A stretch of DNA of 64,000 bases from Candidatus Uhrbacteria bacterium (GCA_016187515.1 JACPJN010000006.1:257556-321555), one strand, 5' to 3'. Positions 455-51,293 are shown, counted from the stretch's first letter. Numbers and translations: made by a program. Notes: generated from the letters alone by a model not told the origin.

Positions 455-769
455 CATTTTGTTACTCCATCTTTATGGAGGCATAGTCATTTCTGCCATG
501 CTCTGCATGTCGCCATGTCCCGACGATATTTGATATATCGGGACTCCGATTTTACATCGGAGCAGTTCGGACTATATCTTGTCCGACGCTGAGTCGGACT
601 CTGGCGTATAGTCTCTACGGACTCTCTCAACACTTTCGTGTTAAGGTTGCCTCGGTATTGTCTCGATGCTTATCGAGATGTTTACCGATATAGCCAGATT
701 TTCTTCTACCTCTTTGCAATGGCTGCAAAGTTCGAAGGAGGTCTTCCACCTCACTAAGGCAGCAATTCC
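455..769 (-). ncRNA. ORF-less group I intron in the 23S rRNA at the E. coli U1931/A1932 site
   Basis: An insertion of about 315 nt splits GTCCTAAGGU | AGCGUAAUCCCUUGUCGGGU. The 5' exon ends in U and the intron ends in G (…GUAACAAAAUG|AGCG). The internal core GAGACUAUACGCC…GUCCGACUCAGCGUCGGAC…AAGAUAUAGUCCGAAC matches the group I P7/P3 core (compare Tetrahymena CAGACUAAAUGUCGGUCGG…AAGAUAUAGUCGGACC). There is no ORF inside. Confidence 0.55.
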
Positions 770-845
770 ACCTTAGGACGATTATAGTTATCGCCGGCGT
801 TCATCAGCGCTTCGGTTCAAAGCTTCGCGCGCTCCGCGCGCAGCC

Positions 846-925
846 TATAGCATAGGGCATAGAGCAAAGGGCATAGAGATTGTTTTCTCTACGCTCTAAG
901 CTATAAGCTCTTAGCTCTAAGCTGC
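846..925. repeat. Heptamer-unit hairpin insertion (GCATAGA/GCTAAGA family) inside the 23S rRNA gene
   Basis: catagggcatagagcaaagggcatagag – loop – ctctacgctctaagctataagctcttagctctaagc. It is an imperfect inverted repeat built from tandem 7-mers. Confidence 0.6.
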
Positions 926-1054
926 GTGCGAAGCACGCTAACTTCTCCCCTTAACGTTCTGACACTGGCCAGGCATCAGCCCCTATACATTGCCTTACGG
1001 CTTCGCAGGGACCTGTGTTTTTGGTAAACAGTCGCTTGAGAGACGCTTGCTGCG

Positions 1055-1192
1055 CCCCCACACCTATCAGGTACCTTGCGTAGCACCTTGGCGCCGTACA
1101 ATGACGGTAATTATTGCAAAGTACACACTAACCTGCGTATAGTACGCAAATTGTGTGGCGCTTCGCGCCAAAGTACCTGATAGGTGTGGGGG
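1055..1192. repeat. MITE-like element bounded by 20-bp terminal inverted repeats CCCCCACACCTATCAGGTAC, inserted in the 23S rRNA gene
   Basis: cccccacacctatcaggtac at 1055-1074 and gtacctgataggtgtggggg at 1173-1192 form perfect TIRs around about 100 nt of unrelated sequence. A second copy with the same TIRs lies at 24969-25103. Confidence 0.6.
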
Positions 1193-1381
1193 AGGCCTTA
1201 TCCCGAAGTTACGGCCACTTTTTTGCCGAGTTCCTAAACGAGGGTTCTCTCGTACACCTTGGCACACTTGTGCCCGGGGACCTGTGTCGGTTTACGGTAC
1301 GGATAACCTACGACAAAATCTCAAAGCTTTTCTTGGCTCCTTGTTCATGAGAATTGACTCGACCTTGCGGCTTTGTCTGCA

Positions 1382-1505
1382 GCCGCGCTCCGCGCGGAGT
1401 TCACAGTTGTCAGTCATCAGTTCACAGTAATTGTTGTTTGTTGGACAATCAATTCAACACTGTGAACCGTGAACCGTTGACTGTAGACTCTGTGCGAAGC
1501 ACAGC
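1382..1505. repeat. GTTCACAG-family hairpin insertion in the 23S rRNA gene
   Basis: ggagttcacagttgtcagtcatcagttcacag … cactgtgaaccgtgaaccgttgactgtagactctgtg. The same unit family occurs in yebC (52258-52312) and in the phosphatase gene (41778-41875). Confidence 0.5.
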
Positions 1506-2021
1506 TATGTGCGTAACCATGAGCACACTCTCACTAGTAAGAAGCGCACCTTGAGACGACTCGTAAGCTAGCGCAGGAATATTAACCTGCTGTCCATCGG
1601 CTACGCCTTTCGGCCTCGCCTTAGGCCCGGCTCACCCTGGGTCGATTTGCGTTGCCCAGGAAACCTTCCCCTTACGGTGTGGAGGGTTCTCACCTCCATT
1701 TGTGCTACTTATGCCAACATTCTCTCTTCCTGCCGCTCCACGGCGGCTCGCGCCTACCGCTTCAACGCTGACAAGAATGCTCCCCTACCGCTCGCGCCTC
1801 GCTGCCGCTCGTCACTCGCTTTGTGTACGAATCAACGAATGCCGTTGCGAATACTACGAATTTGAATTTGTATTATTCGTAATATTCGGCAATCATTCGC
1901 AATTCGTACACAGAGTGCCAAACGATAGTGAGGCACGAGCTCTTGTCTTCGGTATACCGCTTAGCCCCGATACATTTTCAGCGCGCAAGGGCTCGACCAG
2001 TGAGCTGTTACGCTTTCTTTA

Positions 2022-2059
<38 letters not shown>

Positions 2060-2639
2060 AGCCTTTACACTTCTTTTCACACTTAGCGGTAATTTAGGGA
2101 CCTTAGACGAAGATCTGGGCTGTTTCCCTTTTGCACGACGGAGCTTAGCCCCCATCTGCTGACTCCCATGGCACCCCTGCGGCATTCGGAGGTTGATTCA
2201 ATTTGACAGCTTGCGCCGCCAAGATCGATTCAGTGCTCTACCTCCGCAGGTAATCCATAGGGCTATACCACAGTATATTTCGGGGAGAACCAGCTATCAC
2301 CCAGTTCGATTGGTATTTCACCTCTAGCCACGGGTCATCCCATAGTGTTGCACGGCTAATGGGTTCGGACCTCCCTCCGCATTTCTGCGGAGTTCATCCT
2401 GCCGATGGCTAGCTCACCGGGTTTCGGGTCTAGTCCACGCTGCTTTTGCACGAATGACTCACGAATGATTTGTGAGCAATTTGTAACAAATTACTCACGA
2501 ATATCAATTTAGTGAGTCATTCGTGCGTTAACGCCCTTTCAGACTTGGTTTCCCTGCGCCTTCGTCCCGTAGGACTTAGACTGGGCAACGCGGAACAAAC
2601 TCGTTGGCTCATTCTTCAATAGGAACACCATCACCGCGC

Positions 2640-2760
2640 ACAGCGCGGAAGCTCCAAATTCCAATTTCCAAATCACAAACAAATTCGAAATCCCAACATT
2701 CAAATCCCAAGTTTGTAATTTGGAATTTGTAATTTGGGTATTGTTTGTAATTTGGTGCTT
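2640..2760. repeat. CAAATTCCAAAT / ATTTGGAATTTG hairpin insertion in the 23S rRNA gene
   Basis: ccaaattccaatttccaaatcacaaacaaattcgaaatcccaac…caagtttgtaatttggaatttgtaatttgggtattgtttgtaatttgg. The same family is found in-frame in leuS at 62879-63060. Confidence 0.55.
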
Positions 2761-4081
2761 GGTTATTGGATATTCCGTGCTATGCACGGCTCTGATTCCT
2801 TGTAAGCGTATGGTTTCAGGTTCTATTTCACCGGCCTCACCGGCCTACTTTTCACCTTTCCCTCACGGTACTGGTTCGCTATCGGTTAGAGAGGAGTATT
2901 TAGCCTTGGCGCATAGTCGCGCCGGATTCCCACGGGATTTCACGAGTCCCGCGGTACTCAAGTATGATCATAGTAAGGCGATAACCCCTTTCGCGTACGG
3001 GACTATCACCCTCTTTGGTTGGCCTTTCCAGACCATTCTACTAGGGAAGTTACGCTACGTATACCTTACCTCACTATCAAGGCAGTGATCATGACCATCT
3101 TACAACTGCGCTCATCTTTTTAACCCTTGAGTCTTCCACAAAGCGCGTGACACTGCATCTTTCGATGAAGCGCCCGCCTCTCCGCTTTAAGATGAGGGCT
3201 CTAGGCTCATCCCCGTTCGCTCGCCGCTACTAAGGGAATACACGAATGACTCGCCAATGGAGTTACGAATTACCCACAAATAAATTCGTGAGCTATTCGT
3301 CTGCCATTAGTGAGCTATTCGCAATTAGTTTCTTTTCCTCTGGTTACTGAGATGTTTCACTTCACCAGGTTTACTTCTTGCATATTGCTATACAAGATGA
3401 TCCGATGTTAATCGGACCGGGTTGCCCCATTCGGATACCCACGGATCAAAGCTTGCTTGCCAGCTCCCCGTGGCTTATCGCAGGCTGCTGCGTCCTTCAT
3501 CGTCTCTCTCTACCAAGGCATCCACCATACGCCCTTTTGGCACTGAAGCACAAATTTGGATATATGCGCGAATACGCGCGAATCGTCACGTCCCGGTCGC
3601 AAAGCGACCGAGGATCCTCGGCAAAGCCGGGACTTGGACAATCGCGAATAAACGCGAATATGTTATTGCTTGGGTTACTAGTCGAAACTAGCAACTCGTT
3701 TTAGATGCGATTACTCTATATTCAATTGTCAATGGACTCGATAGCGCAGATGGCTACCGCCCGCTGGTTTCGCAGAATCACTATCTGCGCGATCCGCGGC
3801 CGAAAGGCATCTGTGTAATCAAAGGGCCTCGCTTCCAAGCGAGGCCCCAAAATTACACCGAAAAAACACGGCTACCCGCTTGGAAAGATTAATTTCAAGG
3901 TTTTTGCCATATTTTGGCTAAAACTTAGGGCCTCCGGCTACTTCTTATTATCACTCCTACTATGCCACACCCCCAAAATCGTGTCAAGTGCGGCTCCTCC
4001 ACAGGGTATAAACACAAAAAAGAAGCTCCACCTTCGGGTGGAGCAACAAAGGAGCTGGGTCTGTTTTGCATCGAGAGAGAT

Positions 4082-12188: not shown

Positions 12189-13520
12189 TTACCGCGGCAG
12201 CGGGCTGAATTTTTGTCCAAGTTCCCAATTCGGATCCACATCCAGTTTTTGCCACGGGGTAAACCCCCACACCAAAGGCCGCCGTTTTCCCCGTTTTGGT
12301 GTGGGGGTAAATTGTTTTGCCTGCGCCATAAAATAGCCGGCCACGGCAATCATGGCGGCGTTGTCCGTCGCGTATGCGACGGATGGCATAGAGCATAGAG
12401 CAGATGGCGTATGGCGTTTTATGGCTTCTACCAACCGCTGGCGTAATCTGGCGTTCGCTGCTACGCCGCCACCGAGGAGAACGGTTTTTACTTTGTATTT
12501 TTTTGCGGCACGAATGGTTTTTGAAACCAATACATCCACCACCGCCTCTTGAAATGCATAACACAAGGAAGCTAAGAGCTTAGGGCTAAGGGCATAGAGT
12601 TTTGCTCTATGCTCTATGCTCTGCGCTCTAAGCCAATAGAGTACGGCGGTCTTAAGACCGGAAAAACTAAAATCAAAATCCGGAGAATCAATCATGGGGC
12701 GAGGGAAAGTTAGGTGATTAGGTACGTAGGTAGTTAGGTACGTAGGTTTGTTTCCCGCGTACCTTCGTACCTTAGTACCTTCGTACCATTTCTCGGCTTC
12801 CCGAGAAATGGCCGGCCCTCCCGGGTAGCCGAGATTAAGCATCTTCGCCACTTTATCAAACGCCTCTCCGGCCGCATCGTCGCGCGTCTCACCAACAATT
12901 TTAAAATCCAAATGTCCGCGCATGAGCACCAGTTCAGTGTGGCCACCACTCACAATCAGCGCAAGCGCTGGGAATTGCATAGGGCTTAGGGCGTAGTGCG
13001 TAGGGTTTTGCTCTATGCTATATGCTCTATGCTCTATGCTGCGAATTTTCTCTCCGAGAAAATTCGCATACACATGTCCCGCCAAATGATTAACCGCCAC
13101 CACTGGTTTTTTCCAAAGCCAAGAAAGAGTGCGGGCCACCTCCACCCCCACAAGCAATGAGGTTGCCAATCCCGGACCGGCAGTAACGGCAATGGCGTCA
13201 ATTGAAGAAGACCAAGCGACTAAGCGACTAAGCGACTGGGTCGTTTGCTTTTTCTTAATCTCTTCATTTCTTAATCCCTTAATCGCTCTTTCAATCACCG
13301 GAATAATCTTCTCCACATGCGCCCGCGCCGCCACCTCCGGAACCACTCCGCCCGTTTTCGCATGAATTTTAATCTGGGACGCTATAATGTTACTTAAAAC
13401 TGAACAACGAAACGACTGAACAACCGGTTGTTTCGTTGTTTCGTTGCTCCGTCGTTCAGTTATCTCCACCACCGCCGCCGCCGTCTCATCACAACTCGTT
13501 TCAATCCCCAAAATTCTCAT
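12189..13520 (-). CDS. tsaD: tRNA N6-adenosine threonylcarbamoyltransferase TsaD (Kae1/Gcp), lengthened by about 100 aa of in-frame repeat insertions
   Basis: MRILGIETSCDETAAAVV…, HLAGH, GGGVAAN. The protein is 443 aa against about 340 aa typical. The extra segments coincide with hairpin repeat blocks at 12381-12425, 12571-12633, 12711-12811, 12977-13067 and 13201-13300. Confidence 0.85.
   Translation of the reverse strand: MRILGIETSCDETAAAVVEITERRSNETTKQPVVQSFRCSVLSNIIASQIKIHAKTGGVVPEVAARAHVEKIIPVIERAIKGLRNEEIKKKQTTQSLSRLVAWSSSIDAIAVTAGPGLATSLLVGVEVARTLSWLWKKPVVAVNHLAGHVYANFLGEKIRSIEHRAYSIEQNPTHYALSPMQFPALALIVSGGHTELVLMRGHLDFKIVGETRDDAAGEAFDKVAKMLNLGYPGGPAISREAEKWYEGTKVRRYAGNKPTYLTTYVPNHLTFPRPMIDSPDFDFSFSGLKTAVLYWLRAQSIEHRAKLYALSPKLLASLCYAFQEAVVDVLVSKTIRAAKKYKVKTVLLGGGVAANARLRQRLVEAIKRHTPSALCSMPSVAYATDNAAMIAVAGYFMAQAKQFTPTPKRGKRRPLVWGFTPWQKLDVDPNWELGQKFSPLPR
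12571..12633. repeat. heptamer hairpin (GCTAAGA/GCATAGA family) in-frame in tsaD
   Basis: gctaagagcttagggctaagggcatagag-tttt-gctctatgctctatgctctgcgctctaagc. Confidence 0.65.
12711..12811. repeat. octamer hairpin (AGGTACGT units) followed by a second short hairpin, in-frame in tsaD
   Basis: aggtacgtaggtagttaggtacgtagg – tttgtttcccgcg – taccttcgtaccttagtaccttcgtacc, then ccatttctcggcttcccgagaaatgg. Confidence 0.6.
12977..13067. repeat. heptamer hairpin followed by a short hairpin, in-frame in tsaD
   Basis: gcatagggcttagggcgtagtgcgtagggttttgctctatgctatatgctctatgctctatgc, then gcgaattttctctccgagaaaattcgc. Confidence 0.6.
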
Positions 13521-13522: not shown

Positions 13523-14842
13523 TTAAAAACTTTTTCTTTCTTTTAAAATCTTTCCTTCACTATACCACCTTTTCCGGAGTTCACCAGCCAAAAAGAATGA
13601 CCCGGTTACCAATACCAGATCATCTGCAAGCACGGCGGCAAGTGCGGCCGAAAGCGCATCGCGGCAATCCATATCTACTTCCGCGCGCGTTCCACGCTTT
13701 GCATACTTTTTTACAACCCGCAGTAATTCACGCGGATGCGCGCACTTGCGTAGCGGCATATCAAATCGCGTTATATAGATTTGGTCAGCTTCCGGCGCAA
13801 TCACTTTGCAAATACCGTCAATATCTTTATCAGCCGCGATCGCAAGGACTAGGTGTAATTTTCTAAACTTCACGCGTTCCACATTCGCTACTGTGGCTCT
13901 CATTTTACTGACACTATGCGCGCCATCAAGTATCACCAACGGTCTCTTCCGCATTCCTTCAAATCGACACGGCAAACGCGCTTTCTTAATCCCTTTGATA
14001 ATCGCACGTTCCGGAATTTTAAAATACTTCGCAATCTCCCATACGAGCGCCGTATTCTTTCCCTTATAATCCATCCCCAACTGCAATGTTTTAATGCTTT
14101 CATGTTTTAATGCTTTAATATCCATCACCTTCGCCCCTTTCTGCTTCCCCATCTTCTCAAACATCCGCGTGAGCTGCGGGCGCGCCTCGGCCGTAAAAAA
14201 CGGTACGCCACGGCGCATAATTCCGGCTTTTTCGCGCCCGATTTTAGTGAGCGTAGACCCGAGCAGGTGAGTATGATCATAGTCCACGTTGGTCAGCACC
14301 GTAGCTACGCATCCATTAATCAGTACACCCGGATCATATTTTCCGCCCAGTCCTACTTCCAAAACCACCCACTTACACTTTTGCCGTAAAAAATACTTTA
14401 CCGCAATCGCAAACCAAATTTCAAAATACGACGGTCCGCCGTATGGCGACTTTAAATAGGCGCGCGTAATGTATGGCTTAAGCTCATCCACGATATGCGC
14501 CAACTCTTGCGGAGAAATGTATTGGTCACCAACGCGAATCTTTTCAATGGAAGTGGTGGTGAACGGGGTGCTAAAAGAACCCACGCGCCTGCCGGCCGCG
14601 CGCAAAACCTCATGCAGCATGGCAGTTACAGACCCTTTTCCGGAAGTCCCGGCAATATGAATGAACTTGAACTGCGTCTGATTTAAAATACCAATCAATT
14701 CAAAAAAATACCTCATTCGCTTGAGGTATTTCTCCGGCTCGTTCCTATCCCGCATGTAATCCTTCTGCCCTGGAACATTTTTCAGACCCTCAAGAAACCG
14801 AATTGTCTCAAAATACGCCTCAAACTTTTTGTCCATATACAT
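13523..14842 (-). CDS. folC: folylpolyglutamate synthase / dihydrofolate synthase (Mur ligase family)
   Basis: HIAGTSGKGS P-loop, VLEVGLGG, and a Mur-ligase C-terminal region. Confidence 0.8.
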   Translation of the reverse strand: MYMDKKFEAYFETIRFLEGLKNVPGQKDYMRDRNEPEKYLKRMRYFFELIGILNQTQFKFIHIAGTSGKGSVTAMLHEVLRAAGRRVGSFSTPFTTTSIEKIRVGDQYISPQELAHIVDELKPYITRAYLKSPYGGPSYFEIWFAIAVKYFLRQKCKWVVLEVGLGGKYDPGVLINGCVATVLTNVDYDHTHLLGSTLTKIGREKAGIMRRGVPFFTAEARPQLTRMFEKMGKQKGAKVMDIKALKHESIKTLQLGMDYKGKNTALVWEIAKYFKIPERAIIKGIKKARLPCRFEGMRKRPLVILDGAHSVSKMRATVANVERVKFRKLHLVLAIAADKDIDGICKVIAPEADQIYITRFDMPLRKCAHPRELLRVVKKYAKRGTRAEVDMDCRDALSAALAAVLADDLVLVTGSFFLAGELRKRWYSEGKILKERKSF

Positions 14843-15579: not shown

Positions 15580-16368
15580 TTAAAATTCCTTTGCCTTACC
15601 AAGCTCCATTTTTACAAATTCAATGCCGCTTCCCGCCAGTCCGGTTTCAAAAATTTTGTACCACGGTACTTCCGGCCATTTTACCATAGCGTCGTGAATG
15701 GGGATAGCATATTTAGGTTTGACTTTTTTTACAAATTCCAATCCTTCCCGCACCGCCATCCATGGCGCCACCACTGGTACGGCCAGAATCTCGGCCTGTA
15801 CTTCTTCTGACGGCGTAACACAATCGCCCGGGTGGAATAATTTGCCCGCAATGAGAAAGCCGACATTTTCCACGCGCGGGAAATGATCCGCAATATGGCC
15901 GTGGTCACAGGCAATAGCACGAATAGTTACTCCCTGCACCGTACGAATCTCGCCTGGCTTCAAAATCTCAATCTTAAATTTAATACCATTCTCCGTAAGC
16001 ACCTTTTTTACTCCCTCATTCGTCAGTATCAACCCTGATTCTTGATTCATGATTCCTGATTCATAAATCTGCTTCAGCGCCTCCGGATCCGTATGATCCG
16101 CGTGCTCATGTGTCAAAAGTAAAACATTGCACTGCGGCAAATCCTCCGGCTTCAATAATTTCCGCGTGGTTCCGCGTACGGCCGCATGGTAAGCGCATGA
16201 ATGATCACACCCCATGCCGCGGCCGCCTTCCGCGTGGTTCCGCGAAGCCGTGGAAAAAGAAATTTCTCCATCATTGCCTTTAAACACATAACTGCCCGGG
16301 TCAATCAAAATCCGCGCGGTTCCTTCCTCAATAAACAAACACGAATGTCCGTATTTAGTAACACGCAT
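15580..16368 (-). CDS. MBL-fold metallo-hydrolase
   Basis: VLLLTHEHADHTD (HxHxDH) and a CDHGH motif. Confidence 0.75.
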   Translation of the reverse strand: MRVTKYGHSCLFIEEGTARILIDPGSYVFKGNDGEISFSTASRNHAEGGRGMGCDHSCAYHAAVRGTTRKLLKPEDLPQCNVLLLTHEHADHTDPEALKQIYESGIMNQESGLILTNEGVKKVLTENGIKFKIEILKPGEIRTVQGVTIRAIACDHGHIADHFPRVENVGFLIAGKLFHPGDCVTPSEEVQAEILAVPVVAPWMAVREGLEFVKKVKPKYAIPIHDAMVKWPEVPWYKIFETGLAGSGIEFVKMELGKAKEF

Positions 16369-18981: not shown

Positions 18982-20049
18982 GTCTCTAGAATCTAACGCA
19001 ATAGTAAGTTAAATGCTTCATAAGGCGTTGCGTAATCAAGAACCTTTCGAGGCCTGCCGTTGAGAAGGTGTTGCACATGCTTCACTTCTCGGCGGGAGAT
19101 CTTTGAAAAGTCAGTGCCTTTCGGAAAGAACTGTCGGATCAGGCCGTTGGTATTCTCATTCGTGCCGCGCTCCCATGGGCTCGCGGGATGAGCAAAGTAC
19201 ACCTGCATCTTCGTGTCTCCCGTGAACAGTTTATGCTCGGCCATCTCTCGGCCTTGATCGTAGGTCATGGAAAGGCGCATATGGGCAGGCAACTTCTTTG
19301 CCTCTTTGGCAAACGCTTTCCGTACCGTTTCCGCAGTTCTGTTCTTCAGGGGCACCAGAATCGTGGTGCGTGTGGTGCGTTCCACAAGGGAGCCAAGCGC
19401 GGATTGTCGGTTCTTGCCAATCAGGAGATCGCCTTCCCAGTGACCCGGGATTATCCGATCTGCAACTTCTGCCGGACGCTCTTCTATGGAGAGCATATCC
19501 TCCAGTTTCCGCTCAAAGACGGGCGTTTCTCCGTGGCGCCGTTTGTGCCGTCGCTTCCTCTCGCGCCTCAGACAGGCCAGGAGCTCTTTCTTGAGAGCAC
19601 CCTTTGGCAGAACATAGAGGTATGAGTAAATCGCTTCCGGAGATATGCGCATAGTCATATCTAGAGGATACTCCTTGGCAATCTTGCGAGCAATTTCCTC
19701 AGGTGACCAACGCAGGCGAAGTTTCGCATACACATACCGGCGAATACGGGGCTGCAGCAGGATCTTGCGTTTCCACAGCTTTCTCTTTCTGGCTTTTCGA
19801 CGGGCACGCCTGTGAGCAGTGGCTGCGCGGTACACATACCGATTGCATCCTCCTGCCGAGACCTCATGACTGATGGTGCTCACAGACCTGCCAAGGAAAC
19901 GGGCAATATCTCCAAATGAACATCCTTGGGCGAGCATTCTGCTGATCTCCTCTCGCTCACCCTCACTTAAACGATGATAATTCATAGGTCTAACGCGTTA
20001 CTGATAATACCGGAACGGTATCATAAGTGTTGCGTTAGATTCTAGAGTC
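18982..20049. mobile_element. IS30-family insertion sequence
   Basis: 20-bp terminal inverted repeats (g[t/a]ctctagaatctaacgcaa, one mismatch) at 18982-19001 and 20030-20049 enclose a single DDE transposase ORF. Confidence 0.8.
18993..19985 (-). CDS. IS30-family DDE transposase
   Basis: The N-terminal HTH reads EGEREEISRMLAQGCSFGDIARFLGRSVSTISHE. The C-terminal integrase-like core reads …MTYDQGREMAEH…AHPASPWERGTNENTNGLIRQFFPKGTDF…. Confidence 0.85.
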   Translation of the reverse strand: MNYHRLSEGEREEISRMLAQGCSFGDIARFLGRSVSTISHEVSAGGCNRYVYRAATAHRRARRKARKRKLWKRKILLQPRIRRYVYAKLRLRWSPEEIARKIAKEYPLDMTMRISPEAIYSYLYVLPKGALKKELLACLRRERKRRHKRRHGETPVFERKLEDMLSIEERPAEVADRIIPGHWEGDLLIGKNRQSALGSLVERTTRTTILVPLKNRTAETVRKAFAKEAKKLPAHMRLSMTYDQGREMAEHKLFTGDTKMQVYFAHPASPWERGTNENTNGLIRQFFPKGTDFSKISRREVKHVQHLLNGRPRKVLDYATPYEAFNLLLR

Positions 20050-26711: not shown

Positions 26712-28121
26712 ATGCTCTACTTACTACTTACTACTTACTACTTACTTTTCGCCCTCCTGGCCTGGAAACGGCTTCACTGGGCGGTACTTTTGATTATTGC
26801 TACCCTTCCAAGCTACCTAATCCGTTTTCATCTAGGACCAATCCCGATTACACTGCTTGAGGGAATGATACTCATTGTCGTCGCAGTATGGCTGCTACGA
26901 CAGCTTAGAGCTAAGGGCTTAGAGCTAAGGGCATTTGAAACTCTACGCTCTACGCTCTACGCCCTACGCTGGCCGCTTGCGCTATTTTTAATAGCGGCCA
27001 CCGCGGCCATGTTCGTTGCTCCGGATTGGCGCGCTGCGGCCGGTATTTGGAAGGCCTACTTTATTGAACCGACTATTTTCTTCTTGATCTTGCTTGATCT
27101 CAAACTTCACCACCCCGCCCTTCTTGATAACAACAAAATTATCCGCGCACTTTCTGTTTCCGCTCTCCTGCTTTCCGTCTACGCTATCTGCCAGCGCTTG
27201 ACCGGCTTTGGAATTCCTGCGCCATGGGACGCGGAGCTGCGGGTTACCAGCATTTTCCCATATCCCAACGCGCTTGGCCTTTTCCTTGCGCCTCTTATAC
27301 CGCTGATGATTGGAATGTTGATAGAATCTAGAAGCTGGAAAATAGAAAATAGAAAATTCTACTTACTACTTACTACTTACTACTTACTCGCAATTATCTC
27401 TTCAATAATTGCGATCGCTTTCGCCAAATCCACCGGCGCGCTGGTGGGAATCGGGGCAGGATTAATTACTATGGGTATTTTGTGGTTGCGGCAAAAATCG
27501 TGCGGCCGCACTCAATCTACCGTAGTCGCTTTGGGAATATTTGCTACACTTGCGGCACTACTTCTCATATTCTCTCTTCCAGCGCGAGATGAACTTCTTC
27601 TCCGCGACTGGTCCGGCCATGTCCGCCGCACGCAGTGGAGCGAGACCATTGTCATGCTCAAAGACCACCCACTACTTGGCGCCGGACTCGCGGGCTACCC
27701 CGAAACACTCAAACCATACCACAAGGCAACATACATCGAGATTTTTCAGTATCCGCACAACATCGTGCTCAATTTCTGGTCCGAAACCGGCCTGCTTGGC
27801 CTTCTTGCCTTTGCATGGCTTACTATCATATTTTTCCGCATAGCACTACTCAACACTCGTAACCCCTCCCAACCTCCCCTTACCCTAAGGGGAGGAGACA
27901 AAACAATCCCCCCTCTTAAGGTAAGAGGGGGCGGGGGGAGTTATGAACTCATCCCCATCGCAGCCATGGCAAGTATGACCGTGCTCCTCGTCCATGGTCT
28001 GGTTGACGTTCCCTACTTCAAGAATGACCTTGCCATTTTGTTCTGGATCGTGTATGCTTTGGGCGTTGTAAATAATAAGAACTCTTATGCAACATCTAAC
28101 CAAACTCTTCAAACTCATTGA
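26712..28121 (+). CDS. O-antigen ligase / polymerase-like (Wzy_C domain) membrane protein, with in-frame repeat insertions
   Basis: Polytopic membrane protein with HNIVLNFWSETGLLGLLAF (Wzy_C). Repeat blocks lie at 26715-26750, 26904-26968, 27355-27390 and 27859-27945. Confidence 0.7.
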   Translation: MLYLLLTTYYLLFALLAWKRLHWAVLLIIATLPSYLIRFHLGPIPITLLEGMILIVVAVWLLRQLRAKGLELRAFETLRSTLYALRWPLALFLIAATAAMFVAPDWRAAAGIWKAYFIEPTIFFLILLDLKLHHPALLDNNKIIRALSVSALLLSVYAICQRLTGFGIPAPWDAELRVTSIFPYPNALGLFLAPLIPLMIGMLIESRSWKIENRKFYLLLTTYYLLAIISSIIAIAFAKSTGALVGIGAGLITMGILWLRQKSCGRTQSTVVALGIFATLAALLLIFSLPARDELLLRDWSGHVRRTQWSETIVMLKDHPLLGAGLAGYPETLKPYHKATYIEIFQYPHNIVLNFWSETGLLGLLAFAWLTIIFFRIALLNTRNPSQPPLTLRGGDKTIPPLKVRGGGGSYELIPIAAMASMTVLLVHGLVDVPYFKNDLAILFWIVYALGVVNNKNSYATSNQTLQTH

Positions 28122-32177: not shown

Positions 32178-33182
32178 ATGGAGATGCTGATTATCATCGG
32201 TTCCGGGCCGGCCGGATATACGGCGGCGATTTACGCCGCGCGGGCAAACCTTAAGCCGCTTTTATTTGAAGGCAGCGAACCCGGCGGACAGCTCACGACC
32301 ACCTCGGACGTGGAAAATTACCCGGGCTACCCGGATGGCGTGCCCGGTCCAAAAATGATGGAGGATTTAAAAAAGCAAGCCGAAAGATTTGGAACACGGA
32401 TCATGAATAAGACGGTGACGAGAGTTGAGTTTGGTACTCCCACCCCTCCTAACCTCCCCTCGGGCAGGGGAGGAAACAAACCAATTTCTCCCCCTTTTCA
32501 AGGGGGAGTTAGAGGGGGTCTGTTTAAAGTTTGGTGTGGTGAGGAAATGTATGAATCCCGCGCGGTGATAATCGCGACCGGCGCTTCGGCCAAACGGCTG
32601 GGGTTAGAAAATGAAAAAAAATTATACGGGAAAGGGGTCTCGGCCTGCGCAACGTGTGATGGATTTTTTTTCAAAGAAAAAATCGTGGTGGTGGTTGGCG
32701 GCGGAGACACCGCTATGGAAGAATCACTTTTCCTCACGAAATTCGCCAAGAAGGTCTATGTTATACACCGCCGCGATGAATTCCGCGCTTCAAAAATAAT
32801 GCTGGAGCGCGCGCAAAAAAACCCGAAGATTGAATTTATTCTAAATACCGTGGTGGAAGATGTGCTGGGAGCGGATGTTGGCCATGTTACTGGTGTCAAA
32901 CTTAATAACTTAATCACTAAATCACTTAATAACTTGCCCTGTGACGGTGTTTTCGCCGCCATCGGCCACGAGCCCAATACCAAAATCTTTGCCGGACAAA
33001 TTGAACTGGACCAAAAAGGATACGTCGTAACCAAGGCCGGCTCTACTATGACATCTGTTGAAGGAGTGTTTGCCGGCGGCGACTGCGTTGACCACCAGTA
33101 TCGCCAGGCCGTCACCGCCGCCGGACTGGGCTGCGCAGCGGCAATTGATGCGGAGCGCTGGCTGGAAGCTCAAACCCATTAG
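32178..33182 (+). CDS. trxB: thioredoxin-disulfide reductase, with two in-frame repeat insertions
   Basis: IIGSGPAGYTAAIYAAR, CATCDG redox-active site, GGGDTAMEE. The extra segments lie at 32448-32521 and 32897-32934. Confidence 0.85.
   Translation: MEMLIIIGSGPAGYTAAIYAARANLKPLLFEGSEPGGQLTTTSDVENYPGYPDGVPGPKMMEDLKKQAERFGTRIMNKTVTRVEFGTPTPPNLPSGRGGNKPISPPFQGGVRGGLFKVWCGEEMYESRAVIIATGASAKRLGLENEKKLYGKGVSACATCDGFFFKEKIVVVVGGGDTAMEESLFLTKFAKKVYVIHRRDEFRASKIMLERAQKNPKIEFILNTVVEDVLGADVGHVTGVKLNNLITKSLNNLPCDGVFAAIGHEPNTKIFAGQIELDQKGYVVTKAGSTMTSVEGVFAGGDCVDHQYRQAVTAAGLGCAAAIDAERWLEAQTH
32448..32521. repeat. G/C-rich palindromic module (CCTCCCC…GGGGAGG family) in-frame in trxB
   Basis: cccacccctcctaacctcccctcgggcaggggaggaaac … ttctcccccttttcaagggggagttagagggggtc. 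Confidence 0.6.
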
Positions 33183-33186: not shown

Positions 33187-34542
33187 ATGTCCACTTTTCA
33201 ATCTGCCCTTACTCAACTGGAGCGGGCGGCAAAACTGATCAATCTTGATCCGAGAATTTTAAAAGTTTTGGAAACGCCAGAGCATTTGCATGAAAAAACC
33301 CTGACGATAAAAATGGATAACGGATCCGAGCAGGAGTTTCACGCGTATCGGGTACAACATAACAATTCCCGCGGCCCGTACAAAGGCGGCATCCGTTTTC
33401 ATCCGCAAGTTGACATGGACGAAGTCAAGGCGCTCGCGCTCTGGATGACGATTAAAACCGCCGTGGTGGATATTCCATTTGGCGGAGCCAAGGGCGGCAT
33501 CACGGTTGATCCGAAAAAACTCTCTGCCCGTGAACTTGAAGAACTCTCCCGTCAATATGCGCGGGCGTTTTTTGATATTTTAGGTCCGGACAAAGATGTC
33601 CCGGCGCCGGATGTAAATACCAATCCGCAGATTATGGGGTGGATGACGGATGAATATGCAAAATTGGCAAAGGGTGGAGAGCAAAGGGCAAAGGGCTCTA
33701 CGCCATATGCTATAGGCCCTACGCAGCTGCAAGCGACGTTTACCGGAAAATCCATTGCTCATGGAGGATCTGAAGGTCGCGAAGAAGCAACCGGCTATGG
33801 AGGTTTTGTAGTGCTGGAGGCACTCCGTGTTAAACAAAGGGTAAAGAGCTTAGAGCAAAGAGCAAACAACTCTACGCCCTATGCCCTACGCCCTACGCCA
33901 ACAGTTGCCGTTCAGGGTTTTGGAAATGTTGGTTATTTTTTTGCGGAGCACGCGCACCGGGCCGGATACAAACTCATCTCCATCTCCGATTCCCGCGGCG
34001 CAATTTTGGATAAACGCACGCTCGGCATGGATCCGGAAAATATTATGAAGACCAAAAAGGAGCGCGGCACAATTGGCGGATGCTATTGTATCGGCACGGT
34101 TTGCGACTGTGAAAACTATACGCAGATTTCAAATGAAGAAATATTGGAGCTTCCGGTTGATATCTTAGTTCCGGCCGCGCTTGAGGGTGTGCTCCACAAG
34201 GATAACGCGCACAAAGTGAAAGCCAAAATTATACTGGAGATGGCCAATGGCCCAACCACTCCGGAGGCCGAGCGCATACTGCTTGAGCGCGGCACGCTCA
34301 TTGTACCGGACGTACTGGCTAATGCCGGCGGAGTCGCCACTTCGTACTTTGAATGGAAGCAGAATATGGCAGGAGAAAAGTGGAACAAGGCACAAGTGTT
34401 AGCGCAACTGAAGGAAAAATTGGAGTATGCCTTTACCGAGGTCTGGCGTACTGCACAGGAACTCCACACCGATCTCCGCACTGCGGCCTATGCCGTGGCG
34501 CTCGAGCGTTTGAAACAAGCGGTTACAGTTACCAGAACTTGA
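33187..34542 (+). CDS. gdhA: Glu/Leu/Phe/Val dehydrogenase (glutamate dehydrogenase), with two in-frame repeat insertions
   Basis: KGGIRFHP, GGAKGG, GFGNVG (Rossmann). The start was set at MSTFQ (33187). Insertions lie at 33667-33724 and 33841-33900. Confidence 0.85.
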   Translation: MSTFQSALTQLERAAKLINLDPRILKVLETPEHLHEKTLTIKMDNGSEQEFHAYRVQHNNSRGPYKGGIRFHPQVDMDEVKALALWMTIKTAVVDIPFGGAKGGITVDPKKLSARELEELSRQYARAFFDILGPDKDVPAPDVNTNPQIMGWMTDEYAKLAKGGEQRAKGSTPYAIGPTQLQATFTGKSIAHGGSEGREEATGYGGFVVLEALRVKQRVKSLEQRANNSTPYALRPTPTVAVQGFGNVGYFFAEHAHRAGYKLISISDSRGAILDKRTLGMDPENIMKTKKERGTIGGCYCIGTVCDCENYTQISNEEILELPVDILVPAALEGVLHKDNAHKVKAKIILEMANGPTTPEAERILLERGTLIVPDVLANAGGVATSYFEWKQNMAGEKWNKAQVLAQLKEKLEYAFTEVWRTAQELHTDLRTAAYAVALERLKQAVTVTRT

Positions 34543-40529: not shown

Positions 40530-43322
40530 ATGAAACGCATTGGCATCCTCTTTACTTTGATATTTATCCTTATCTCCGCGCTGTGGCGCGCGCCTTTGGT
40601 ATCCGCGACCATGCCGGAACAGCTTCGTCTTTCCTGGCAAAACGATCCGAAAACCACCATGACGGTAATGTGGCGGACCGATGAGCAACAGCCGTCGCCG
40701 CGCGCGCAGTACGGGACCGACGCGCAATATGGCAGTGCAGCCGAAGGCGCCACTATTCCGGCAGTTTTTCCCGGATATTTTTATCACACCGTGGAGATTA
40801 CCGGTCTTACCCCGGGCACGACCTATCACTATCGGGTAAGCAAACCTCAAGGCACCTGGTCTAACGATTTTACTTTTCGCACCGCGCCCGCCGGCCCGGT
40901 TGACTTTACCTTTACCGCGTTTGGCGACAATGGCAGCAGTACGGCTTCGGGTGATCGCGCTTTGCGCGTGCAATCGCGCGCGGTTGAGCAAAATCCGTCC
41001 CTGCATCTTGTGGCGGGTGATTTGACTTACGCGGACAAAGAAAAATGCGACGCGTCGGAAAAATGCGTGGAACGTTCCTGGGAGCAGTGGTTTTCCGAGA
41101 TGCAGCAGATTTCCGCCCAGGTACCGGTCATGACCGCGATTGGCAATCATGAAAAACATCGCAAAGTAAAGTTTGAAAATGGCGATCTATTTTACAATCG
41201 TTCGCTTGCGCTTCCTCCGGCGCATAATGAATTATATTATTCCTTTGATTATGGCGATGTGCATTTTACCATACTGGACTCCGTGAGCGCCGGACAGTTT
41301 CGCCGCGGAAAAGAGCAGTATAATTTTGTGGAGCAGGATTTGGCCGCCACCAGCAAGACCTTCAAAGTCGTGGTGTTCCACCATCTCCCTTATACTTCCG
41401 GCCATTCCCACAACGCGGATCGCCGCATTCAGGAAGAATTAACCCCGCTTTTGGAACGCTTTAATGTGGACTTGGTTATTGTTGGACACAATCATCACTA
41501 CGAACGCACCTATCCGCTAAAATACAAAGCGCCAAATGATCCGGAAATTACCTCCACTGGTTCGGAATATACAACTGCGGATGGTATTGTGTATGTGGTA
41601 ACCGGAGGCGGGGGCAGAAGCGTTTATAAATTTGGGACTGAAAAACCGGCCTGGTCCGCGGTGCGCTGCGAGTGTCATGAAATCGTACGCGTGGATGTAG
41701 ACGACGCCGGGATTCTTACGGTACGCGCGATTGATATTGACGGGAACGAAGTGGATAGATTTACAATCAGTAAAAATAGTTCACAGTCGTCGGTTCACAG
41801 TGCACAGCCGCCCACCCAACCCACCGCACTGCCTCAACCTAATAACTCAATAACCCAATCACTTAATAACTCTCAATCCATCCGCGGTTTCAACTACGCG
41901 GTTTGGTGGCACGACTCTTTGGGCAAGCCGGAGGCGCGCCGCTCGCTTGACGATCTAAAAGCTACCGGCGCGAATTACGCGGCGTTTGCGCCCTTCTGGT
42001 ACCAAGACGCGAAAACCAGCACGGCGATCGCGCGCGACGGCCGCAAGAGCGCCACCGACGAGTCGCTCACCTCCGCCATCCGCTATGCCAAATCAATCGG
42101 TTTGCGGGTCGCGTTCAAGCCCATGGTGGACTCGCGCGATGGTACTTGGCGGGGAAAGTTTGAGCCGGCTGACGCTGACGCTTGGTTTGCCAGTTACCAG
42201 GACTTTATTTTGCACTACGCCAGCCTGGCCGACGCGGAAGGCATTGACTATTTTGTGGTCGGCACGGAATTTGCTTCGCTGACCCGGCCGCAATACACGG
42301 AAAAATGGCGGGAAATTATTCGCGAGACGCGCGCGGCCTATGACGGGCCGATCACTTACGCCGCCAACTGGGGCAAGCGTCATGAAGGCGAGTATTATCA
42401 GGTGGAGTTCTGGGATGCGCTGGACGCGATTGGCATTGACGCGTATTTTCCGGTCTCCCGCGATGAAAATCCGGACGTGGCCGGAGTGCAAAACGCCTGG
42501 ACTTTTATTCATACCGGTAATCAAAATCAAAATTGGTTCGCGGATATCCGCGCCAAGCATGAGGAATTTCAAAAGCCGGTGCTTTTCACCGAGATTGGAT
42601 TTTTAAGCTGCAACGGCGCGGGTATTGAGCCATGGAAATACCCGTGTGAGCGCGGAATTGATCTGGACGAGCAAGCCGCGCTTTATGAGGGGACCATGCG
42701 ATTTTGGAAAGATGTGGATTGGATGCAAGGATTTTTGTGGTGGAGGTGGGATGTGGATCCGGACAAAGGCGGCCCCCAAGATGGCGATTATCTGGCGCAG
42801 AACAAAGCGCCGACTATTGATGCGCTAAAAAGATTTTGGTTGGCGTTTGCGCCGAGTTTGCCGTCTGCTTTGCCGCCTTCAGCCCCGCTGTCCCCTGTAG
42901 TCGAGGCCCCGACCGTGAGCATTGGAAATTCCGGTGGCGGCGCGGCGGGACTGGTAACCACTCCTTCTTCAACCGTCCCCACCTTCCCAACTTCTTCTGT
43001 TCGTCTGCCAACACCTAATTACCTAATTACCCAATCACCCAATTACCTCCGCCCATTTGCTTACAACCAACCCCGCCTGCGCTCGCTTGATGAAGAACGC
43101 GCGCGCGCCTGGGAGCTTGCGCAAGCGCTCCATCCGCGATTTCAAGGCCGGATTCCCCTGCACCGCCAGCATTGGCCGATTTACATCAATGCCTACATCT
43201 ACGGCGGCTATCCGGCAGACGCGATTTACCGTTCCATTCAACTTAGCGGCAAAACCGTGCATACCTCCATCCCCTGGAGCGCGTGGAGAAAATCCGCCGA
43301 ATACCAAAGCTATATGCGTTGA
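40530..43322 (+). CDS. secreted purple-acid-phosphatase-like metallophosphoesterase fused to a TIM-barrel glycoside-hydrolase-like domain
   Basis: Signal peptide. PAP N-terminal domain. All five PAP motifs are present: FGDNG, GDLTYAD, GNHE, VVFHH, GHNHHYE. The C-terminal half reads FNYAVWWHD…GANYAAFAPFWYQ…GLRVAFKPMVD…YFVVGTEFAS…YAANWG…DAIGIDAYFP, which is GH5/GH113-like. There are two in-frame repeat insertions at 41778-41875 and 43011-43050. Confidence 0.65.
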   Translation: MKRIGILFTLIFILISALWRAPLVSATMPEQLRLSWQNDPKTTMTVMWRTDEQQPSPRAQYGTDAQYGSAAEGATIPAVFPGYFYHTVEITGLTPGTTYHYRVSKPQGTWSNDFTFRTAPAGPVDFTFTAFGDNGSSTASGDRALRVQSRAVEQNPSLHLVAGDLTYADKEKCDASEKCVERSWEQWFSEMQQISAQVPVMTAIGNHEKHRKVKFENGDLFYNRSLALPPAHNELYYSFDYGDVHFTILDSVSAGQFRRGKEQYNFVEQDLAATSKTFKVVVFHHLPYTSGHSHNADRRIQEELTPLLERFNVDLVIVGHNHHYERTYPLKYKAPNDPEITSTGSEYTTADGIVYVVTGGGGRSVYKFGTEKPAWSAVRCECHEIVRVDVDDAGILTVRAIDIDGNEVDRFTISKNSSQSSVHSAQPPTQPTALPQPNNSITQSLNNSQSIRGFNYAVWWHDSLGKPEARRSLDDLKATGANYAAFAPFWYQDAKTSTAIARDGRKSATDESLTSAIRYAKSIGLRVAFKPMVDSRDGTWRGKFEPADADAWFASYQDFILHYASLADAEGIDYFVVGTEFASLTRPQYTEKWREIIRETRAAYDGPITYAANWGKRHEGEYYQVEFWDALDAIGIDAYFPVSRDENPDVAGVQNAWTFIHTGNQNQNWFADIRAKHEEFQKPVLFTEIGFLSCNGAGIEPWKYPCERGIDLDEQAALYEGTMRFWKDVDWMQGFLWWRWDVDPDKGGPQDGDYLAQNKAPTIDALKRFWLAFAPSLPSALPPSAPLSPVVEAPTVSIGNSGGGAAGLVTTPSSTVPTFPTSSVRLPTPNYLITQSPNYLRPFAYNQPRLRSLDEERARAWELAQALHPRFQGRIPLHRQHWPIYINAYIYGGYPADAIYRSIQLSGKTVHTSIPWSAWRKSAEYQSYMR

Positions 43323-50372: not shown

Positions 50373-51293
50373 TCAACTCCGATAATACTTTGCCGCGTCT
50401 TCGGGGGAAACCGGATTGATGATAAGTCCCGAGCCGATCTCCACCCCAGCCCAAATTGAGCCGCGGGGGGTGATTTTCATGTAAAGATGCTGATCTTCGT
50501 CATGGATAACTTGGTGGAAGTAGAAATTGTAAGGAAGGTTAAGCGCGGCGATTTTTTTCAAAATGCGCTTTAGGATTTTTGCCCAAGAGAGCCGTTCGGC
50601 GTCATTTAAGAGCGTCACATTATCCAGGTGCCGGCGCGGCAGAATCCATACTTCGTAATTGTGCATAGAGGCGTAGGGAGTAAAGGCAATCACTTGCGCA
50701 TCCTCAAACACCAGCCGCGGCCCCGTGCGTTCGCGCGCGATCACATCGCAATACACACAACGGCCGGTACGCAGTTTATACGCTTGCACCTTCTGCGACT
50801 TATCAAAGAGGTGCGGAGGCAAGAAATGGGTGGCAAAAATCTGCGAATGCGCATGTTGGATTGAGGCGCCGGCCGGTCCGCCCGCGTTTTTAAAAATGAG
50901 AATGTATTCGATTTTTTTGTCTTTGGCGATAGCGTCCGTGCGCGCCGCATAGGTGGAGAGTAACTTCGCCACGTGTGGATCAGACAACTCTTCGAGATGG
51001 GTGCCATGTTTAGGGGTTTCCACCACGACTTCCTGCACGCCGTAGGCCTTGGGATTTTCCAAAGAGACGGCGGGGAATTTATTAGGGACGACTTTTATTT
51101 GCCACACTTTATTTCCTCCAACTTCCAGGACATATCCCTCCTGATCCAATTTTTCCGGGCAAAATCGGCAAGGAGGCGGCACCACTTTTTGCGGCGCAGT
51201 TGGCGCAACCTCATGCGGCCGCACCCCCCGCCTAGGCGCAATGATCACGTACTTGTCTTGAATATAATCTTTGCGGATCTCGGATCCCAGCAT
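50373..51293 (-). CDS. galactose-1-phosphate uridylyltransferase-like (GalT / HIT superfamily) protein
   Basis: CRFCPE zinc motif near the N-terminus. The HxHxQ active site reads SIQHAHSQ. Confidence 0.7.
   Translation of the reverse strand: MLGSEIRKDYIQDKYVIIAPRRGVRPHEVAPTAPQKVVPPPCRFCPEKLDQEGYVLEVGGNKVWQIKVVPNKFPAVSLENPKAYGVQEVVVETPKHGTHLEELSDPHVAKLLSTYAARTDAIAKDKKIEYILIFKNAGGPAGASIQHAHSQIFATHFLPPHLFDKSQKVQAYKLRTGRCVYCDVIARERTGPRLVFEDAQVIAFTPYASMHNYEVWILPRRHLDNVTLLNDAERLSWAKILKRILKKIAALNLPYNFYFHQVIHDEDQHLYMKITPRGSIWAGVEIGSGLIINPVSPEDAAKYYRS

Follow-up and report, generated by a model that had tools for sequence, protein, structure and literature searches.

Hairpin-forming tandem-repeat modules carried in frame by the tsaD gene of a Candidatus Uhrbacteria bacterium

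Rickettsia palindromic elements (RPEs) comprise several families of small palindromic repeats of ~150 bp that are located in frame in unrelated housekeeping genes, are believed to be translated where the protein fold can accommodate them, and have a family consensus encoding a conserved peptide (PMC10969869). The heptamer repeats of cyanobacteria, Xanthomonas and Beggiatoaceae (STRR, GGGAATC and TAACTGA) show a preference for approximately four units, with occasional inverted pairs (PMC4692102), occur chiefly between genes, being under-represented in coding sequence (PMC4692102, PMC4679880), and carry stop triplets that constrain their overlap with open reading frames (ORFs) (PMC4679880); an earlier description is that of Vioque 1997, as cited within PMC2858038. 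The four-unit preference of these arrays has been explained by G-quadruplex formation. Here we describe a 64,000-nucleotide stretch of DNA from Candidatus Uhrbacteria bacterium (GCA_016187515.1 JACPJN010000006.1:257556-321555), hereafter the window, with positions counted from its first letter, in which the essential gene tsaD contains six in-frame hairpin-forming inserts, most of them built from tandem units of 7 or 8 nt, and in which related arrays are found in other coding genes, in the 23S rRNA gene and in intergenic DNA.

The classical intervening sequences (IVSs) are, to our knowledge, confined to rRNA, from which RNase III excises them. [quoted passage not shown] Very short inverted duplications, mostly ~5-34 bp and templated from adjacent sequence, have been described at DNA breaks in yeast (PMC11724301). 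A full-text literature search found no description of elements like those of the window in Patescibacteria, also known as the Candidate Phyla Radiation (CPR), although absence from such a search is no proof of novelty.

The tsaD coding sequence (12189..13520, minus strand) is an intact ORF of 443 aa, compared with 342 aa in insert-free Patescibacteria homologues and 337 aa in the TsaD proteins of E. coli and Salmonella, and its product matches the Pfam TsaD family over residues 41-392 (E = 1.8e-79). This protein was aligned first with 22 homologues and later with 111, giving a 112-sequence alignment, the homologues used being of 328 to 446 aa. The HxxxH metal-binding motif (H145, H149) and D386 were invariant in the 112-sequence alignment, and the solved TsaD proteins of E. 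coli and Salmonella aligned blockwise to the window protein, with the gaps on their side. Judged by its sequence, the window tsaD looks like a working gene with an intact catalytic core. A database search retrieved the identical protein on 11 contigs, the longest of 355,817 bp, together with thousands of homologues; the 1332-nt gene was base-for-base identical across Logan assemblies from four different SRA runs, and at most three positions differed in the 4.6-7.3 kb around tsaD in each of the four.

Alignment with orthologues revealed six lineage-specific in-frame segments in the window TsaD, none of which is present in the 342-aa relatives. The net gain from these inserts is ~92 aa, which, along with a 9-aa C-terminal tail common to close relatives, accounts for the difference between 443 and 342 aa. 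The hairpin DNA of the gene sums to ~392 nt, or 131 of the 443 codons, hence part of the ancestral loop residues were overwritten.

Five of the six inserts are tandem hairpins, in which repeat finding and Tandem Repeats Finder (TRF) identified 3.3-4.6 units of 7 or 8 nt, a loop of 3-15 nt, and then 3.8-4.6 approximate reverse-complement units. These hairpins are 63-77 nt in length, with arms of 27-29 nt and a complementarity of 76-85%. Inserts 1, 2 and 4 have 8-nt units: insert 1 (aa 20-41; 13398-13461, minus) reads GAAACAAC / GTTGTTTC in the sense direction and adds a net ~14 aa, insert 2 (aa 80-104; 13210-13284, minus) consists of GACTAAGC x3.5 followed by TCTTAATC x4, and insert 4 (aa 245-270; 12711-12787, minus) of TAGGTACG x3.6 followed by CGTACCTT x3.8. 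The remaining two tandem hairpins have 7-nt units and belong to a family designated here by its units GCATAGAG/CTCTATGC, namely insert 3 (aa 156-182; 12976-13040, minus; TAGGGCG / TGCTCTA) and insert 5 (aa 296-317; 12571-12633, minus; GCTAAGG / TGCTCTA), which are 83% identical over 59 nt. Insert 6 (aa 404-419; 12264-12311, minus) is not tandem; its 48 nt contain a perfect 14-bp hairpin, ACCCCCACACCAAA / TTTGGTGTGGGGGT, with a target-derived ACCCC within one arm, and it is bordered by an 8-bp direct repeat, GGGGTAAA, whose copies lie at 12256-12263 and 12304-12311.

All six inserts fold better than dinucleotide-preserving shuffles on both strands, with z-scores for inserts 1-6 of -5.9, -2.9, -3.9, -5.6, -4.3 and -2.9 on the sense strand and of -3.9, -1.7, -8.6, -6.7, -5.9 and -3.9 on the antisense strand; the pairing of insert 2 is strongest on the sense strand, via G.U pairs. 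The gene also harbours a patch of GCATAGA x2.4 (12386..12402, minus) encoding ALCSM, which is neither an insert nor a hairpin (z = -0.04 sense, -1.27 antisense), involves no change of length relative to the homologues, and is occupied in relatives by an ACTACGT array. Adjoining insert 3 is a perfect 13-bp palindrome (13040..13068, minus), composed of the conserved YANFL codons and an inverted copy of them (EKIR); it is also present in the relative L006, and resembles a fold-back duplication scar.

An earlier note on this DNA had recognized the unusual length of TsaD and the presence of oligomer tandem arrays of several families within one gene, and both observations hold, the latter in the form of the 7-nt and 8-nt units. 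It had placed at least five hairpin inserts at 12381-13300; the gene does carry six, four of the hairpin inserts being in that interval and the others at 13398-13461 and 12264-12311. Its assignment of ~100 extra residues to tandem-unit blocks is accurate for the five tandem hairpins, and needs amending for insert 6, a plain hairpin, for the 9-aa tail, and for the net gain from inserts of ~92 aa. What had been taken as an insert at 12381-12420 is the length-neutral, non-folding replacement patch at 12386-12402, and a quoted peptide, HRADGVWRFMAST, belongs to an antisense ORF on the plus strand (12352..12552), the real product there reading ...HTPSALCSMPSVAY.... The 23S helix-tip copies, the other coding genes, the solitary ~30-nt arrays, the length-neutral overwriting and the different units at the loops of relatives, all described below, lie beyond that note.

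An AlphaFold2 model of the window TsaD, built from the 112-sequence alignment, had a mean predicted local distance difference test score (pLDDT) of 87.2 and a predicted template modelling score (pTM) of 0.88. The 10-residue blocks with a mean pLDDT below 80 (aa 21-40, 91-100, 151-180, 251-270 and 401-420) all overlap inserts, the only other stretch below this value being the three C-terminal residues, and insert 5 coincides with a milder dip (pLDDT 82 at aa 301-310). As modelled, insert 1 extends the first beta-hairpin, parts of inserts 2, 4 and 5 continue neighbouring helices, and inserts 3 and 6 form loops; the inserts are predicted to sit between secondary-structure elements, in low-pLDDT loops. 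The model core superposed on solved TsaD with template modelling (TM) scores of 0.90-0.92 normalized by target and 0.70 by query, as expected of a complete TsaD core carrying ~100 extra residues.

The translation of the arrays was assessed by tiling the consensus unit of each period-7/8 array that lies in a coding gene of the window, a set of 25 arrays distributed over 8 genes, and translating it in the host frame. The host frame was open in 25/25 of these arrays, 13 of which are open in no other sense frame. Perfectly regular units would have yielded 13 in-frame stops, distributed over 11 arrays, and a stop-removing substitution was present at all 13 positions; in several arrays these substitutions are the sole departures from regularity. 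In tsaD the changes include GCA TAG to GCG CAG, TAG to TAT, TAG to TGG and TAA to GAA; in insert 3 a single unit with a would-be in-frame TAG reads TAT, and in insert 5 the corresponding unit reads CAG. Stop purging and openness of the host frame are as selection for read-through would predict, and count against RNA excision, ribosomal bypass and inteins. The tsaD inserts are thus most likely translated and not spliced, SIEHRAYSIEQNPTHYALSPMQ being a predicted peptide of the product that spans an insert-host junction.

Further claims of the earlier note can be judged from these data. That the inserts keep the frame and contain no stop agrees with the open host frame of all coding arrays, and their translation as loops is favoured by the complete purging of stops and by their placement in low-pLDDT loops of the model. 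The ortholog alignment, a comparison that the note had proposed, returned segments that are lineage-specific, missing from the 342-aa relatives and variable among the close ones; the identity of the tsaD DNA in four independent assemblies answers its concern over misassembly, and its expectations of stable folding and of surface-loop positions were borne out by the shuffles and, as far as the model goes, by the low-pLDDT loops in which the inserts lie.

Arrays of this kind are not confined to tsaD, and were located in eight other coding genes of the window as well as at helix tips of the 23S rRNA gene. At a TRF score of at least 40, the window contains 22 arrays of period 7/8, compared with a mean of 0.02 in 50 dinucleotide-preserving shuffles, and none of period 6 or 9. 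By location, coding genes account for 25 arrays, the rRNA gene for 6 and intergenic DNA for 2, approximately three quarters thus being coding and in frame. Hairpins were identified by TRF-based pairing, a scan restricted to Watson-Crick pairs with a 5-bp loop seed having found 14 and missed those that are slipped or rich in G.U pairs. The GCATAGAG/CTCTATGC family was found at seven sites of the window (the rRNA gene, two in tsaD, one in the O-antigen-ligase-like gene Wzy, two in the glutamate dehydrogenase (GDH) gene, and one intergenic), all with the same layout of four units, a short and often T-rich loop, and four units. A uniform strand polarity for this family, with the G-rich arm first and the plus strand folding better, was considered and rejected, as the better-folding strand is mixed; GC skew, which tracks gene orientation, was uninformative.

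The O-antigen-ligase-like gene (plus strand) carries an in-frame GCATAGAG-family hairpin (26903..26970), a solitary 30-nt module of CTACTTA x4.3 (26717..26746), and, in frame at 27338..27388, GAAAATA x2.9 followed by a second CTACTTA x4.3 module; the two CTACTTA arrays (26717-26746 and 27359-27388) are 100% identical. In the glutamate dehydrogenase gene (plus), one in-frame hairpin of the GCATAGAG family lies between the two Pfam domains (33666..33725) and a second follows at 33835..33899. The LeuRS gene (plus) contains two complementary 7-nt arrays in separate loops (62882-62945 and 63026-63061), and the segment between them is presumably a conserved LeuRS motif. Other solitary modules are AATGCTTT x4.4 in a FolC-like gene (14085..14119, minus), in which a would-be in-frame TAA reads GAA; TGATTCA x4.1 in a metallo-beta-lactamase-fold gene (16036..16064, minus), in which a would-be TGA reads GGA; AACTTAAT x4.6 in a thioredoxin-reductase-like gene (32899..32935, plus), in which both would-be TAA triplets are altered; and AATAACTC x4 (41836..41872, plus) and ACCTAATT x4.5 (43013..43048, plus) in a GH113/metallophosphatase gene. 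Local alignment within 250-nt flanks detected no inverted partner for the eight solitary modules.

Period-7/8 arrays were also frequent in the loci of eight relatives (TsaD identity 39-67%), at 0.3-1.9 arrays per kb, with many of them in tsaD, compared with 0 to 0.12 per kb in ten loci of other lineages (L008, L009, L011-L014 and L017-L020), which include Moranbacteria, Paceibacter, Balneatrix, Pelagibacteraceae, Gracilibacteria and two of three Omnitrophota loci; L016, the remaining Omnitrophota locus, contains two arrays of period 7 (0.10 per kb). When the window tsaD was aligned by codons with those of L006 (67% identity) and L007 (59%), the latter an Uhrbacteria relative, L006 proved to have an orthologue of insert 5 that departs from the window copy at 6 nt, mostly non-synonymously, and an orthologue of insert 3 that has diverged strongly, the units of an arm having changed in concert; in this L006 copy the arm-1 GCAAAGA units no longer complement the arm-2 CTCTACG units, and pairing appears weakened. 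Loop 2 of the L006 tsaD is occupied by a GCATAGAG-family hairpin of 7-nt units, the corresponding window loop having an 8-nt family, which implies that the site was hit independently; loop 4 of L006 has a solitary AAATGTA array. Loops 2-4 of the L007 tsaD are filled by another class of palindrome, CCCTC...GAGGG, read as PSP...GEG, and insert 6 is found only in the window, L006 and L007 being without it. Each of the five main loop sites has at least 6 extra residues in 11 to 69 homologues of the 112-sequence alignment. The occurrence of different elements at the same loops marks these as hot spots with turnover. Replacement of host sequence by an array without a change of length was seen both at window 12386-12402 and at L007 10057-10087.

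The palindrome class of the L007 tsaD loops is also represented in the window, where a nested double hairpin rich in CCCCTC/GAGGGG forms a second in-frame palindromic class within the thioredoxin-reductase-like gene (32442-32519, plus) and is read as ...PPNLPSGRGG...PPFQGGVRGG....

The lengths of the arrays were surveyed in 186 kb pooled from the window and the eight relatives' loci. Those of period 7 have a bimodal distribution, with a background at 14-20 nt and a peak at 24-33 nt whose mode is 30-32 nt (~4.4 units), almost none being longer; approximately four copies were present in 51/104 of these arrays. Beyond these loci, at least 120 metagenome contigs contain CTCTAYGCTCTAYGCTCTA, with a GC content of 0.30 to 0.75 among the matches listed; an upstream partner arm was present in 12 contigs among the matches listed, a set too heterogeneous for statistics. 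Arrays of CTCTATG are in frame on metagenome contigs L084, L036, L136, L068 and L030, often giving a hydrophobic LCSMLYALC-like stretch, and inspection of the translations suggests that the host genes encode TolB-like, pseudopilin, multihaem cytochrome and TPR proteins. By the same inspection these stretches fall in signal-peptide or membrane segments, and some of the partner arms form a charged N-terminal extension.

The 23S rRNA gene of the window (Rfam match 647..3549, minus) contains three such hairpins in insertions at helix tips, namely a GCATAGAG-family hairpin (842..923, minus) in an insertion of 106 nt (Rfam model position ~1896), an AGTTCAC/GTGAACC hairpin (1398..1477, minus) in a 134-nt insertion (Rfam model position ~1522), and a CCAAATT-type 7-nt hairpin (2653..2737, minus) in an insertion of ~140 nt (E. 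coli position ~539). Relative to E. coli there are approximately ten insertions, including 142 nt at ~539 and 93 + 36 nt at ~1162-1185, positions that we take to be the helix-25 and helix-45 regions, near classical IVS sites. When folded, some of the rRNA insertions give long helices, for example 2625-2790 (-76.2 kcal/mol), with that at ~1162 folding more weakly (-25.7 kcal/mol). Several of the insertion sites are common to the window and two relatives, and the relatives L007 (13690-13820 and 17120-17183) and L022 (16973-17063) have tandem-unit hairpins inside their 23S genes and, in L022, in the 23S-5S spacer as well. Whole-window Rfam searches at gathering thresholds listed only 23S rRNA and tRNAs, thereby rejecting a known RNA family as the identity of the arrays.

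Several other features accompany the 23S gene. It is situated within a few kb of tsaD in the window, in L007 and in L022. Hairpins of further 23S insertions (E. coli ~232, 653 and 1162) are made by a separate repeat family with units of 9-11 nt (ATTCGTGAGCT, ATTCGTAAT), which also occurs beside rpoC and elsewhere (3240-3319, 2446-2529, 1849-1941, 53661-53720 and 30744-30762). The window 23S is interrupted by a group I intron-like sequence (544-744, minus) near E. coli 1950-2080; its match to Rfam Intron_gpI scores 44.2 bits (E = 6e-10), under the gathering score of 50, and the 3' third of the 23S is absent from 647-3549 and probably lies beyond the intron, partly outside the window. The L007 23S has two group I introns that reach the gathering score.

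One further copy of the GCATAGAG family bears on the classical IVSs. The intergenic element between ruvC and a galT-like gene (51289..51525) has inverted arms of this family (51289-51324 and 51500-51525) that enclose 175 nt with a 58-aa ORF (51319..51495, minus), named 'four helix bundle protein' by NCBI. This ORF, truncated and intergenic, scores 25.9 bits (cut-off 24) against TIGR02436, the four-helix-bundle family, to whose C-terminal half it corresponds, and also matches PF05635, the 23S rRNA IVS protein family, at E = 4.5e-4, which falls short of the family cut-off. A word-indexed search with it returned only the query itself and a full HMMER scan five weak matches, whilst Rfam gave nothing for 51289-51525 beyond a sub-threshold nuoG match. 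Together with the 23S hairpins at ~539 and ~1162-1185, the element suggests kinship with classical IVSs, as a single case. A general link between arrays and an IVS-protein gene was rejected, in that a hidden Markov model (HMM) built from five IVS-protein-like sequences found no further copy in 1.04 Mb (the window and related loci). It is a doubtful proposition that the ~30-nt modules and hairpins are a miniature, gene-less form of 23S-IVS-type elements, with a parent that carries the IVS-protein gene, and that they form a single mobile family made by a dedicated copying mechanism with a ruler of ~4.5 units. If this were true, one mobile family would colonise both rRNA helix tips and protein surface loops, in Uhrbacteria-like Patescibacteria and, judging by the metagenome matches to the CTCTATG family in other kinds of protein, well beyond, and would continually supply bacteria with new peptide segments and with rRNA expansion segments.

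Of the systems described to date, the RPEs are the closest functional analogue. The window elements likewise form hairpins, are dispersed, and lie in frame in unrelated ORFs (tsaD, Wzy, GDH, LeuRS and others) at loop positions, so that the RPE-like character ascribed to them in the earlier note is apt with regard to in-frame hairpins in unrelated genes. Membership of the RPEs nonetheless fails on size, conserved consensus peptide and architecture: the window elements are 63-77 nt and built of 7-8-nt tandem units with many unit sequences, their peptides are unlike between copies and orthologues, they also occur as solitary half-modules and length-neutral patches, their host is a member of the Patescibacteria, and their density is higher, with six in one 1.3-kb gene. 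The original RPE report is said to have included copies in RNA genes as well. The closest structural analogue is provided by the heptamer simple-sequence repeats, which resemble the window arrays in having 7-nt tandem units at approximately four per array, and differ from them in that the window arrays are mostly inside coding genes, with 8-nt units and paired hairpins being common. The G-quadruplex account of the four-unit preference was rejected here because most units are without G-tracts, and a mechanistic ruler may therefore be involved.

Other known systems share fewer features. The 23S IVSs are comparable in their extended-stem insertions near what we take to be the helix-25 and helix-45 positions, and possibly in the one element that encloses a putative fragment of an IVS-protein gene; they differ in that the window hairpins are also in frame inside protein genes, the link to the IVS protein being a single intergenic copy. 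REPs, REPINs and MITEs are similarly short, abundant, hairpin-forming and non-autonomous repeats that exist in families, but the window copies are mostly intragenic, no Y1/RAYT was present among the scanned window ORFs, and an 8-bp direct repeat was found at insert 6 only, with none consistent among the GCATAGAG-family copies by eye. Unlike inteins and ribosomal bypass ('byp') elements, all of the window inserts are in frame and purged of stops, though intein motifs were not searched. REP/REPIN, inteins and bypass elements each fail on at least one tested feature, as MITEs probably also do. The fold-back insertions of yeast have a parallel in the palindrome of host codons that adjoins insert 3 and in the arm of insert 6 that includes target sequence; however, they are known from induced breaks and leave the tandem 7-8-nt units and shared families unexplained, hence the analogy extends to one step only.

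The reading that we favour, at a probability of roughly 60%, is that small DNA modules, widespread in this genome and its relatives, have entered tsaD on six occasions, and that these are selfish or neutral copied DNA filtered by selection. The basic module would be approximately four units of 7 or 8 nt (~30 nt), which in tsaD is mostly paired with an inverted copy across a loop of 3-15 nt. Modules would originate and spread at the DNA level: template switching or templated repair would carry copies of existing arrays to new sites, and fold-back synthesis would make the inverted arm. Since stepwise gain of single 7- or 8-nt units shifts the frame of an essential gene, the arrays most likely arrive or change in blocks, and the shared families, together with the signs of fold-back or templated copying (the 13040-13068 palindrome, the ACCCC arm of insert 6 and the length-neutral replacements), favour templated copying; confidence in the combination of templated copying with a fold-back step is nevertheless low. 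Selection would then retain those copies that are a multiple of 3 nt, have no in-frame stop and are located at tolerant sites, such as protein surface loops and rRNA helix tips, a survival filter to which the frame and stop patterns and the structure model point indirectly. Transcription and translation of the tsaD inserts would yield loops of poor order, or would lengthen helices and a beta-hairpin; the inserts would add nothing specific to catalysis, and would encode peptides that drift freely and are replaced over time.

Several observations weigh against this account. The analysis brought to light neither a donor-recipient pair, nor an empty site that is polymorphic, nor an enzyme, and the copying mechanism is accordingly one that we infer; among the scanned ORFs of the 64-kb window there was no Y1/RAYT transposase or reverse transcriptase. 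The sharp 30-32 nt mode of the 7-mer arrays, with few above 33 nt, is not predicted by simple template switching and hints at a dedicated ruler. Examination by eye revealed no consistent target-site duplication among the GCATAGAG-family copies, the direct repeat of insert 6 being the only clear one. Unit edges overlap conserved host codons in L006 (AAATGTA at EK[CW]) and L007 (AGTTCAC at F-V-SN), which fits an origin in place as well as it fits copying. In each of the three rRNA hairpins that were tested, folding on the rRNA sense strand, which has G.U pairs, equals or surpasses that on the other strand, so that some RNA-level selection may act there, and the translation of the inserts is itself deduced from sequence only. 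The sole transposase among the scanned ORFs is IS30-like (HTH_38 + rve; 18993..19985, minus) and has no evident link to the arrays.

Growth of the arrays at their present sites would require no movement, with a host 7-8-mer expanding by local slippage and the inverted arm arising by local fold-back or by the 'compensatory slippage' proposed for eukaryotic rRNA expansion segments. The unit sequence is indeed site-specific at most sites, the AAATGTA and AGTTCAC units run into conserved host codons, the palindrome beside insert 3 is an inverted copy of host codons, and heptamer repeats are over-represented in prokaryotes, ~7 nt having been proposed as the stretch that interacts with the polymerase (PMC4679880, PMC4692102). 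Yet single-unit steps shift the frame of an essential gene, making such stepwise growth in coding sequence non-viable, and slippage alone is expected to give a geometric decay of lengths rather than a mode at ~4.4 units; nor does it sit well with a GCATAGAG family at seven unrelated window sites in a common 4+4 layout, with identical 30-nt CTACTTA arrays at two sites, or with one tsaD loop being occupied by 7-nt units in L006 and by 8-nt units in the window. We regard an origin in place as rather unlikely. Elements maintained for a function of their structure, be it mRNA stability, translation pausing, RNase III sites, ribosomal expansion segments or partner surfaces of TsaD, would account for fold energies well under those of shuffles, for the sense-strand folding of the rRNA hairpins, for rRNA insertion sites common to three genomes and for the expansion of the same protein loops in many relatives. 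In coding genes, however, the better-folding strand is antisense as often as sense, arm pairing appears weakened in the L006 copy of insert 3, the peptides vary even between close relatives and are modelled at low confidence, unrelated elements fill the same loop in different species, and solitary arrays have no hairpin partner; a functional role is accordingly judged unlikely.

Removal of the inserts before the mature product, by RNA excision, ribosomal bypass or mini-intein splicing, would leave a TsaD of ~340 aa. Similar hairpins at 23S ~539 and 1162-1185, near what are presumably the classical IVS sites of helices 25 and 45, and the putative remnant of an IVS-protein gene enclosed by arms of the same family at 51289-51525 are in keeping with such a process. 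Removal would lift coding constraints, yet every insert is divisible by 3 nt in length and leaves the host frame open, substitutions have removed each stop that a regular unit would place in frame (13/13), more than half of the coding arrays (13/25) are open in the host frame only, and the inserts, at ~16-27 aa, are far smaller than we take inteins to be, all of which renders removal very improbable. Assemblies are known to go wrong at short tandem and inverted repeats, and chimeric or collapsed reads, or faulty binning, might in principle produce such a gene. Here the gene is the same to the base in four assemblies from separate SRA runs and its protein recurs on 11 contigs, the frame and stop patterns are biologically coherent, and the same phenomenon is seen in relatives assembled in other projects (NCBI, ENA and JGI records), so an artefact can for practical purposes be dismissed.

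Two features of the window are independent of the tandem-unit arrays. A perfect 16-bp palindrome, CTTTCCGCCCGAGGCG gatc CGCCTCGGGCGGAAAG (21482-21517), which is not of the tandem-unit type, lies inside the listed ORFs 21466-21939 (+) and 21234-21629 (-), ~430 nt from tRNA-Glu. The partial LeuRS ORF (62174-64000, plus) encodes a NUDIX domain after the editing domain (Pfam E = 3.3e-13, residues 404-520), which is an unusual domain insertion for an aminoacyl-tRNA synthetase.

In the window tsaD, junk-like hairpin repeats are the source of ~131/443 codons of an essential enzyme that is conserved universally, and TsaD is apparently not broken by them; the 23S rRNA gene is enlarged by the same repeats. 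Repeat insertion followed by stop purging would represent a route to new protein loops and to bacterial rRNA expansion segments, with a record that is legible unit by unit, and the idea of 'selfish DNA inside genes' that was developed for the RPEs would extend to the CPR. Such inserts inflate protein lengths, disturb marker-gene alignments and phylogenies, and can mislead the annotation of CPR genomes; they may also help to explain the unusually long, insert-laden housekeeping proteins and rRNAs that are encoded by these small genomes.

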